Assembly: GCA_964016885.1 (NCBI GenBank)
Contig: OZ024742.1
Coordinates: 80,972,001-81,036,000, forward strand
DNA length: 64,000 nucleotides
Origin: Eledone cirrhosa
Taxonomy: Eukaryota
Direction of reading: 5' to 3'
Shown in pieces: positions 52,643 through 53,103 of the stretch. Position 1 is the stretch's first letter, and each line of letters begins with the position of its first letter. Both the position numbers and the translations under genes were made by a program. The notes beneath the pieces are model-generated. The model saw nothing but the letters and a program-made list of their open reading frames with translations. It was not told where the DNA came from and searched no databases.

Positions 52643-53103
52643 TTAATAAAAGGAATTCCAACTTTGTCTGATTTACCCGTTTTATTTACAATCCTTTAAC
52701 ATTTACAATGGTATTAGAATGAAATAGTATGGTAGAATATTAACTATTAAGTGTTAATTGAACAAGTAATTTCATGCGTTCGCAATCTTCAGGGTCATAT
52801 GACTCCAGTTGCTCAGTGAAATAACAACCCAACAAGGAACTGGGCATATCAGAGTATTGACAATATTATACACCTAAACAATATATGTACTTGTCTATAC
52901 CATACTAATTCAAACTGCCTGAAGAGGTCACAGCCAAAGATGGCTGTCACTGAAATATATGTAGCAGTAATAAACGAAGCTAAATTTTAATCATTTGACT
53001 TTTATTTAACTTTATTTTAGACTACTCCGGAGTAACCAAACCAACCTACGCACTTCGTCGAGTGCTCTAGCCTGCATACTAGGTGTTGGTATACAACCAA
53101 CAC
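52643..53103. mobile_element. Back-to-back fusion of two different hammerhead-bearing tails in (TA)n
   Basis: 52643-52800 is nearly identical to the reverse complement of 45035-45195 (Neptune tail, hammerhead at 52759-52797 minus). 52800-53103 is an unrelated plus-strand tail with its own hammerhead. Confidence 0.82.
52914..52968 (+). ncRNA. Type I hammerhead ribozyme motif
   Basis: ACTGC-CTGAAGA-stem II ACAGCC/GGCTGT-GAAA-TATATG-TA-GCAGT, followed by AATAAA. Confidence 0.88.

Follow-up and report, generated by a model that had tools for sequence, protein, structure and literature searches.

The insert at positions 52643-53103 of the window (the whole 64,000-nucleotide stretch of Eledone cirrhosa DNA analysed here) joins two high-copy repeats of different families head to head. 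Judging from the states that it shares with other copies, its left arm most likely traces to a dead neighbour 7.5 kb away, and not to an active master element. The junction between the arms is real and uncommon, yet it is a single scar with a probable local donor. The source of the arm points to local material, which may have been DNA rather than RNA, and a local repair patch is a likelier reading of this locus than proof that two RNAs were inserted together. The explanation that we favour, with some hesitation, is that a TA-primed strand made a templated copy of local, decayed DNA of one family (A), snapped back on itself and was end-joined to the tail of another (C).

The back-to-back structure described in an earlier, sequence-only reading is borne out. 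A minus-strand tail of family A meets an unrelated plus-strand tail of family C without TA between them. The 5' ends of both arms meet, the 3' ends point outward into TA, and no target DNA separates the arms. Opposite orientation, outward 3' ends and arms without intervening target DNA are also the geometry of a twin-primed insertion. The features of the insert, its surroundings and its relatives in the window are as follows.

52643-52799, minus strand: left arm, a family-A 3' tail and probable local copy of 45037-45193 (3/157 differences to the copy at 45 kb).
52759-52797, minus strand: minimal type I hammerhead in damaged form, which keeps its core letters but has weaker stems I and III and an altered loop II.
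52794-52803, no strand: perfect palindrome of 10 bp that spans the junction and reaches 4 bases past the family-A match.
52800-53103, plus strand: right arm, the 5'-truncated 3' tail of high-copy family C, with a read depth of the same order as that of the 3' end of element B.
52914-52968, plus strand: intact minimal type I hammerhead (motif and fold), with a predicted cut after 52963.
52969-52974, plus strand: AATAAA hexamer, read from the sequence and carrying little weight in AT-rich DNA.
53021-53103, plus strand: optional AC-rich 3' extension of family C that contains hairpins, from depth and predicted fold; boundary approximate.
52633-52642, no strand: short TA tract of ~5 units at the left insert edge, from the sequence.
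53104-53498, no strand: long TA tract at the right insert edge, from the repeat listing.
49800-52632, minus strand: third Penelope-like element (family B), decayed and 5'-truncated, from ORF pieces, homology and depth; left boundary approximate.
45037-45193, plus strand: probable donor, a tail that meets TA at 45193-45241 and belongs to a decayed family-A copy with internal deletions (44059-45197).
40676-40832, minus strand: third family-A tail and outgroup, the end of a near full-length decayed copy reaching to ~44058 (13/157 differences to the left arm).

Both outer ends had been said to run into TA repeats. This is true of the right end, where the tract is long, but on the left the repeat amounts to only about five units. 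Since the insert is flanked by TA on both sides, the tract hides any target-site duplication.

The left 157 nt are indeed a minus-strand 3' tail, and its hammerhead core lies where the sequence-only reading had placed it, running from 52797 to 52759, in damaged form. Stem I contains a mismatch, the stem-III palindrome is broken, and the sequence is not predicted to fold as a hammerhead (z +0.75). The core is present in 3/3 family-A tails of the window and damaged in each; family A thus belongs to the elements that carry a hammerhead in their terminal repeat. The right tail runs on the plus strand, is unrelated to the left arm and, as reported before, combines an intact hammerhead with an AATAAA. 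Here, stem I has 5 bp, the long stem II has one mismatch and the short stem III is self-complementary (z -2.31), so that the family-C tail bears a hammerhead of the minimal type I. This agrees with the short stem I, long stem II and short self-complementary stem III described for the minimal type I hammerheads of Penelope-like pseudo-LTRs (PMC4209133), unlike which the left motif of the insert is damaged. About 130 bp separates the two motifs, which lie on opposite strands; in Schistosoma, opposite-strand hammerhead pairs are described at distances of 100-700 bp (PMC4209133). A strict hammerhead descriptor matched five times in the window vs 0 in each of 100 dinucleotide shuffles. An Rfam search of the whole window at the gathering score gave no hammerhead match, its sole match being a tRNA, and the family-C hammerhead pattern was found at 0 loci in metagenome, prokaryote and viral collections. 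Downstream of the right hammerhead, a T-rich tract ending in AG (52990-53021) resembles the 3' end of an intron.

Family C is a dispersed high-copy repeat with an optional 3' extension, and it ends at TA (53104). Its depth is high in 4/4 runs and falls about threefold in the last bin of the tail in all of them, a fall that is partly an effect of the reference edge. No close copy of the right arm was found within the window. A distant, decayed look-alike of the tail, ending in TA, is present at 36412-36600 (score 72 vs 59 for the best of 200 shuffles); a second candidate at 63617-63793 was rejected, as its score of 71 against a shuffle maximum of 74 is no better than chance. Non-LTR retrozymes are defined by tandem repeats with a hammerhead in each unit (10.64898/2026.07.22.740005), and the locus holds a single unit and no tandem array.

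The argument for a local origin rests on the left arm, which is 98.2% identical to 45037-45203 and 92.0% identical to 40672-40833. Across its 157 nt, 11 sites agree with the 45-kb copy and not with the 40-kb copy, one agrees with the 40-kb copy and not with the 45-kb copy, and two are private. The states at 52769 and 52794, both common to the left arm and the 45-kb copy, break hammerhead stem III and mismatch stem I, respectively. Population data on the rarity of the shared states cover one site, 52769. Among family-A copies, the state at this site makes up at most 0.51% of depth in sequencing run X1, 0/1,125 depth units in X4, 0/11 in X5 and at most 18/703 reads in X14. As a yardstick for copy-private mutations we used element B: of 491 substitution rows 40 were listed, of which 34 were kept after dropping six polymorphic ones, and 28 near-fixed differences were classed. 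Most of these are non-synonymous (25, including three stops, against three synonymous), which points to neutral decay after insertion. Among the rows listed, near-fixed differences leave 0-1.0% of depth, and only 2/28 exceed 0.51%. The state at 52769 is thus as rare as the decay mutations of B and acts like a copy-private mutation, yet it is present in two copies 7.5 kb apart.

The insert had been put forward as the strongest single case for two independent RNA templates in one event. We find this unsupported, since the left arm hardly differs from a decayed family-A copy 7.5 kb off, which that reading had missed, and has a rare, ribozyme-damaging state in common with it. The 45-kb copy contains one stop, frameshifts and two internal deletions, and the left-arm copy begins exactly at the TA edge of this donor. 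The ORFs of the 40-kb and 45-kb copies differ by nine synonymous and 14 non-synonymous changes (pN/pS 0.40, P 0.03). This synonymous excess indicates that the two copies diverged in part within active lineages; some of the 11 states held in common may therefore mark a subfamily, and the deficit of changes private to the 45-kb copy is by itself not significant (P 0.11). An assembly duplication of the 45-kb tail was also considered; three substitutions and a distinct junction argue against it.

The decayed ORF pieces of family A (41250-43883) contain a YLDD motif and one resembling DKG, and their end is GIY-YIG-like and includes internal cysteines; these features were read by eye against the motifs of PMC8557442. 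On these by-eye motifs, family A encodes a reverse transcriptase along with a GIY-YIG endonuclease at the C terminus in a single ORF upstream of the tail; Pfam assigned 0 families to the pieces. A CX2-5CxxC linker between reverse transcriptase and endonuclease is described as common to Neptune and Nematis (PMC8557442). In the sole family-A copy that keeps this region, the CxxC is present and the position of the first cysteine is taken by a proline. The label "Neptune-type" given to family A fits the motifs, and we take the likeness to be to Neptune rather than to Nematis. In the alignment, a second, degenerate hammerhead-like motif can be made out by eye upstream of the terminal one in the 3' untranslated part of family A (40930-41010, minus strand; 44860-44925, plus strand).

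At the junction, the first four bases after the family-A match, which ends at 52799, are the reverse complement of the left arm's own end. Of the 58,615 centres in the window, 94 have a palindrome of this kind, which corresponds to a chance of ~1.1% of meeting one within 3 nt of a given point; the four extra bases may instead be native sequence of C. The sequence-only reading had held that a fold-back model cannot produce non-homologous arms. For a plain fold-back this is correct, but a short fold-back followed by a jump fits the 10-bp palindrome at the junction.

To what extent the joint at 52799/52800 recurs was approached indirectly, by aligning four of 16 listed sequencing runs to 50090-53100. 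The runs lack this locus and may represent another lineage: the best word share is 0.47, none of the 16 contains half the words of 51600-53100, four B alleles have zero depth in X1, and no RNA run with the sequence was listed. In this run, summed contig depth, which is not a copy number, is 306-381k on A, 415-653k on C and 480k on B. At 52769, contigs extend at most 32 letters from an end in X1 (57 contigs) and 31 letters in X5 (one contig), which are the distances from 52769 to 52800 and 52799. In the 20 comparable X1 rows listed (at least 40 contigs each, the row at the reference end left out) the reach is at least 37 letters, with a median of 52. Contig reach at 52769 thus stops at the junction, which suggests that most family-A copies leave the window sequence there and that the joint is not family-wide; this argues against a composite family with the junction in most copies. 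Binned depth across the junction is compatible with a unique and with a shared junction alike. The identities of the arms, their shared rare state and the palindrome are direct observations, and the non-recurrence of the junction is an indirect one.

In the scenario that we favour, a Penelope-like tail of family C would lie within a TA tract, next to the point where element B is truncated at its 5' end. A free top-strand end, ending in TA, would pair with the TA tract adjoining the decayed A copy 7.5 kb away, and the invading strand would copy 157 bases of the donor flank from DNA. The new end would then fold back on itself, gain about four bases and be end-joined in this folded form to the 5' end of C, either during closure of the C insertion or after the TA tract had broken at some later time. 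The head-to-head appearance would arise because TA tracts are self-complementary and mostly flanked by element tails. Here, the DNA nature of the donor, the order of the steps and the enzyme are what we infer. From sequence alone, DNA of the 45-kb copy and a transcript of it are indistinguishable as donors, and the left arm stops where family A normally has its 3' end, an outcome that is also expected of reverse transcription and speaks against a DNA copy.

Both parts of this process have counterparts. Snap-back end joining leaves inverted repeats at junctions (PMC2943611), and three LINE-1 insertions carry sequence templated from nearby genomic DNA (PMC11702581). As in snap-back synthesis-dependent microhomology-mediated end joining, a short inverted repeat spans the junction; in contrast, the templates described in PMC2943611 lie within tens of bases, and a 157-bp copy from 7.5 kb away would need strand invasion or a template jump as well. 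Two snap-back-like joints occur elsewhere in the window. At 44059-44106, 48 nt form an exact inverted copy of 43893-43940, and at 63931-63958 a perfect 28-bp palindrome caps another truncated tail (63840-63958).

Among the alternatives, the insertion of two RNAs in one event survives best, although we regard it as unlikely. Here, reverse transcription would extend both strands at the TA nick, with a C RNA as template for the bottom strand and an RNA from the decayed 45-kb copy, or from its small subfamily, for the top strand, and snap-back end joining would link the cDNA ends. A purified Penelope-like protein, modelled as a dimer, cuts and extends both strands (PMC11167929), and nine two-RNA insertions of LINE-1 are known, some of them in opposite orientation (PMC11702581; PMC13174262). 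Both arms of our insert end at family 3' ends, and a pair at 40-45 kb is arranged likewise, its arms stemming from different source elements. The ages of the arms are indistinguishable as well (p 0.3-0.7), so that one event and two events both stand: private changes amount to 2/157 in the left arm, at least 6/304 in family C (by eye, from partial tables) and 23/963 in element B, without a significant difference. However, the donor is a dead local copy, which would have to be transcribed in the germ line and captured by the enzyme of another family, or two enzymes would have to act at one nick. In a rotifer, no cross-mobilisation was described between the two Penelope-like types studied (PMC3846280), and the other clearly Penelope-like head-to-head pairs in the window are of one family in 3/3 cases.

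Two separate insertions into one TA tract are rather unlikely. In this case, a young, small or lineage-specific A subfamily would have inserted beside the 5' end of C, with loss of the intervening TA upon integration or afterwards. Insertions into TA are nested and piled up in this region, the junction holds an ATAT that could be a TA remnant, and the 45-kb copy with its two internal deletions could belong to a non-autonomous subfamily. Yet this would require two members of a group with at most 0.5% of the family depth within 7.5 kb, and other adjacent elements here retain a TA tract between them.

A further possibility concerns element B, which was absent from the earlier note. It comprises ORF pieces at 50165-51352 and 51417-52685, is 62-64% identical to an Octopus vulgaris protein (64% to the closest named protein), and loses read depth from its 3' to its 5' end. 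Penelope-like elements of O. vulgaris are described as abundant and partly active (PMC13282606). The truncated 5' end of B lies in an asparagine-rich stretch and adjoins the left TA tract. This stretch, at 52137-52632, is the N-terminal part of its ORF, and the Octopus homologue likewise starts with an N/S/G-rich region. Asparagine-rich inserts are known from rotifer Penelope elements. A search for the B protein in metagenomes returned 22 pattern matches, 0 of which were confirmed. If C were the downstream tail of B, the two would form an ordinary same-family head-to-head pair with a piece of A patched into its centre, which we consider improbable. The truncated 5' end of B and the 5' end of C do face each other, the 3' end of B itself breaks off near 49810 within what looks like the start of a hammerhead, and depth in X5 agrees (33.4 for the 3' part of B, 32.7 for the hammerhead bin of C). 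Against this, C shows no similarity to the 300-bp 3' untranslated part of B, 0/10 B-like proteins match translations of C at a useful E-value, depth ratios vary between runs, and no B-C joint is present among 15 of 137 joints listed. This question is separate, as it alters the pairing and not the local origin of the A arm.

Still less probable is an inversion scar, in which 45.2-52.6 kb was flipped, the 157-bp A tail was duplicated in inverted form at its edge, and C originally followed a TA tract. Two near-identical tails do face each other across a 7.4-kb segment, and the same two template switches would be needed as in the favoured explanation. Inverted duplications at inversion breakpoints are known from Drosophila. 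Neither putative breakpoint is seen to interrupt an element; the two fall at TA tracts or at the junction, so that the window cannot test this. Finally, it is very improbable that the A tail and C are one non-autonomous family copied whole: depth is high and of the same order on either side of the junction, and no loose end lies near 52800 among 24 of 1,936 loose-end rows listed, but the contigs over 52769 stop at the junction distance (32 in X1, 31 in X5, vs at least 37 in the comparable X1 rows listed), and the left arm bears the rare and not the common A state.

For Penelope-like elements, targeting of TA and inverted copies with truncated 5' ends are the norm (PMC8557442). The insert resembles the inverted pseudo-LTRs described for endonuclease-containing members of the group (PMC8557442; PMC3846280) in its two 5'-truncated tails with outward 3' ends, its TA target, the palindrome at the inverted junction and the optional 3' extension. 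In contrast, the arms described for those pseudo-LTRs belong to one family, whereas here they come from two, and one of them matches a decayed neighbour. Palindromes at head-to-head junctions have been read as self-priming, with capture of unrelated sequence also noted (PMC3846280), and antisense LINE-1 chimeras have been attributed to twin priming (PMC13174262). Both candidate mechanisms for our insert therefore have direct LINE-1 counterparts, in two-RNA inserts of opposite orientation and in inserts templated from nearby DNA (PMC11702581; PMC13174262). LINE-1 is a different class of retroelement, whose target-site duplications and poly(A) prove a single event, whereas here TA hides the duplication. 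A two-family head-to-head Penelope-like pair was not found in the literature titles and abstract openings searched, which mostly leave out subscription papers; the supplements of PMC8557442 and PMC4209133 may hold some.

The window as a whole is rich in repeats and contains many TA tracts, together with fragments of several Penelope-like elements, a LINE, a Helitron-like piece and small transposons. Pfam gave no match for 9/10 of its ORF pieces, the tenth being an unrelated LINE reverse transcriptase. At 40672-45197, two family-A arms that differ by 6-9% stand head to head, joined by the 48-nt exact snap-back copy with microhomologies of 2-5 nt. Their divergence with synonymous excess indicates that the arms come from two source elements. 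Two templates in a single event, or arms joined in sequence with no TA, may be better exemplified by this pair. Head-to-head Penelope-like pairs of one family that lack TA at their centre are found at 48015-48353, with an intact hammerhead in both arms, and at 38610-39344. Near-perfect palindromic inserts without a hammerhead occur at TA tracts at 45238-45537, 59181-59450 and 4418-4523; these could be fold-back tails or miniature inverted-repeat transposons. Another hammerhead-bearing tail is present in two direct copies (48493-48888 and 49151-49545, 96.5% identical) with ~260 bp of other sequence between them. A Penelope-like ORF piece at 46571-47899, with related pieces at 38096-39342 and 54923-55009, has a CxCX5C linker, a pattern described for the Hydra clade. 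We assign clade names to B and the other Penelope-like elements presumptively, from motifs. A tRNA-headed, SINE-like element at 62663-62999 (tRNA match 62827-62891) carries, on its left side, a copy of its own tail in inverted orientation. The stretches 5435-9258 and 20794-29315 contain what we take to be decayed pieces of a Helitron-like helicase and a LINE in two copies, the LINE with a reverse transcriptase match (PF00078) at 27392-28270; labels other than the Pfam match are our assumption.

The origin of the head-to-head inverted ends of Penelope-like elements is debated, with self-priming proposed from genomes (PMC3846280) and extension of both strands observed in vitro (PMC11167929). Where the arms of a pair are not identical, they can tell the self-priming model from the two-strand one, and this genome seems rich in such pairs. 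The locus described here does not decide between them, because its odd arm traces to a neighbour. A bolder proposal, which we think unlikely, is that Penelope-like elements routinely extend both strands of one TA nick on two RNAs; as the second, any transcript from nearby that leads into a UA repeat could serve, including that of a dead copy of another family. If this were true, the common head-to-head inverted repeats would be products of two RNAs and not of self-priming, and the 40-45 kb pair would be a second case within the window.

Taken together, the insert raises a question that can be put to the whole genome, namely where second arms come from. If they are copied from local DNA, TA tracts would prime short-range duplications in these genomes. 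If they instead derive from distant active elements, two-RNA integration would be real.
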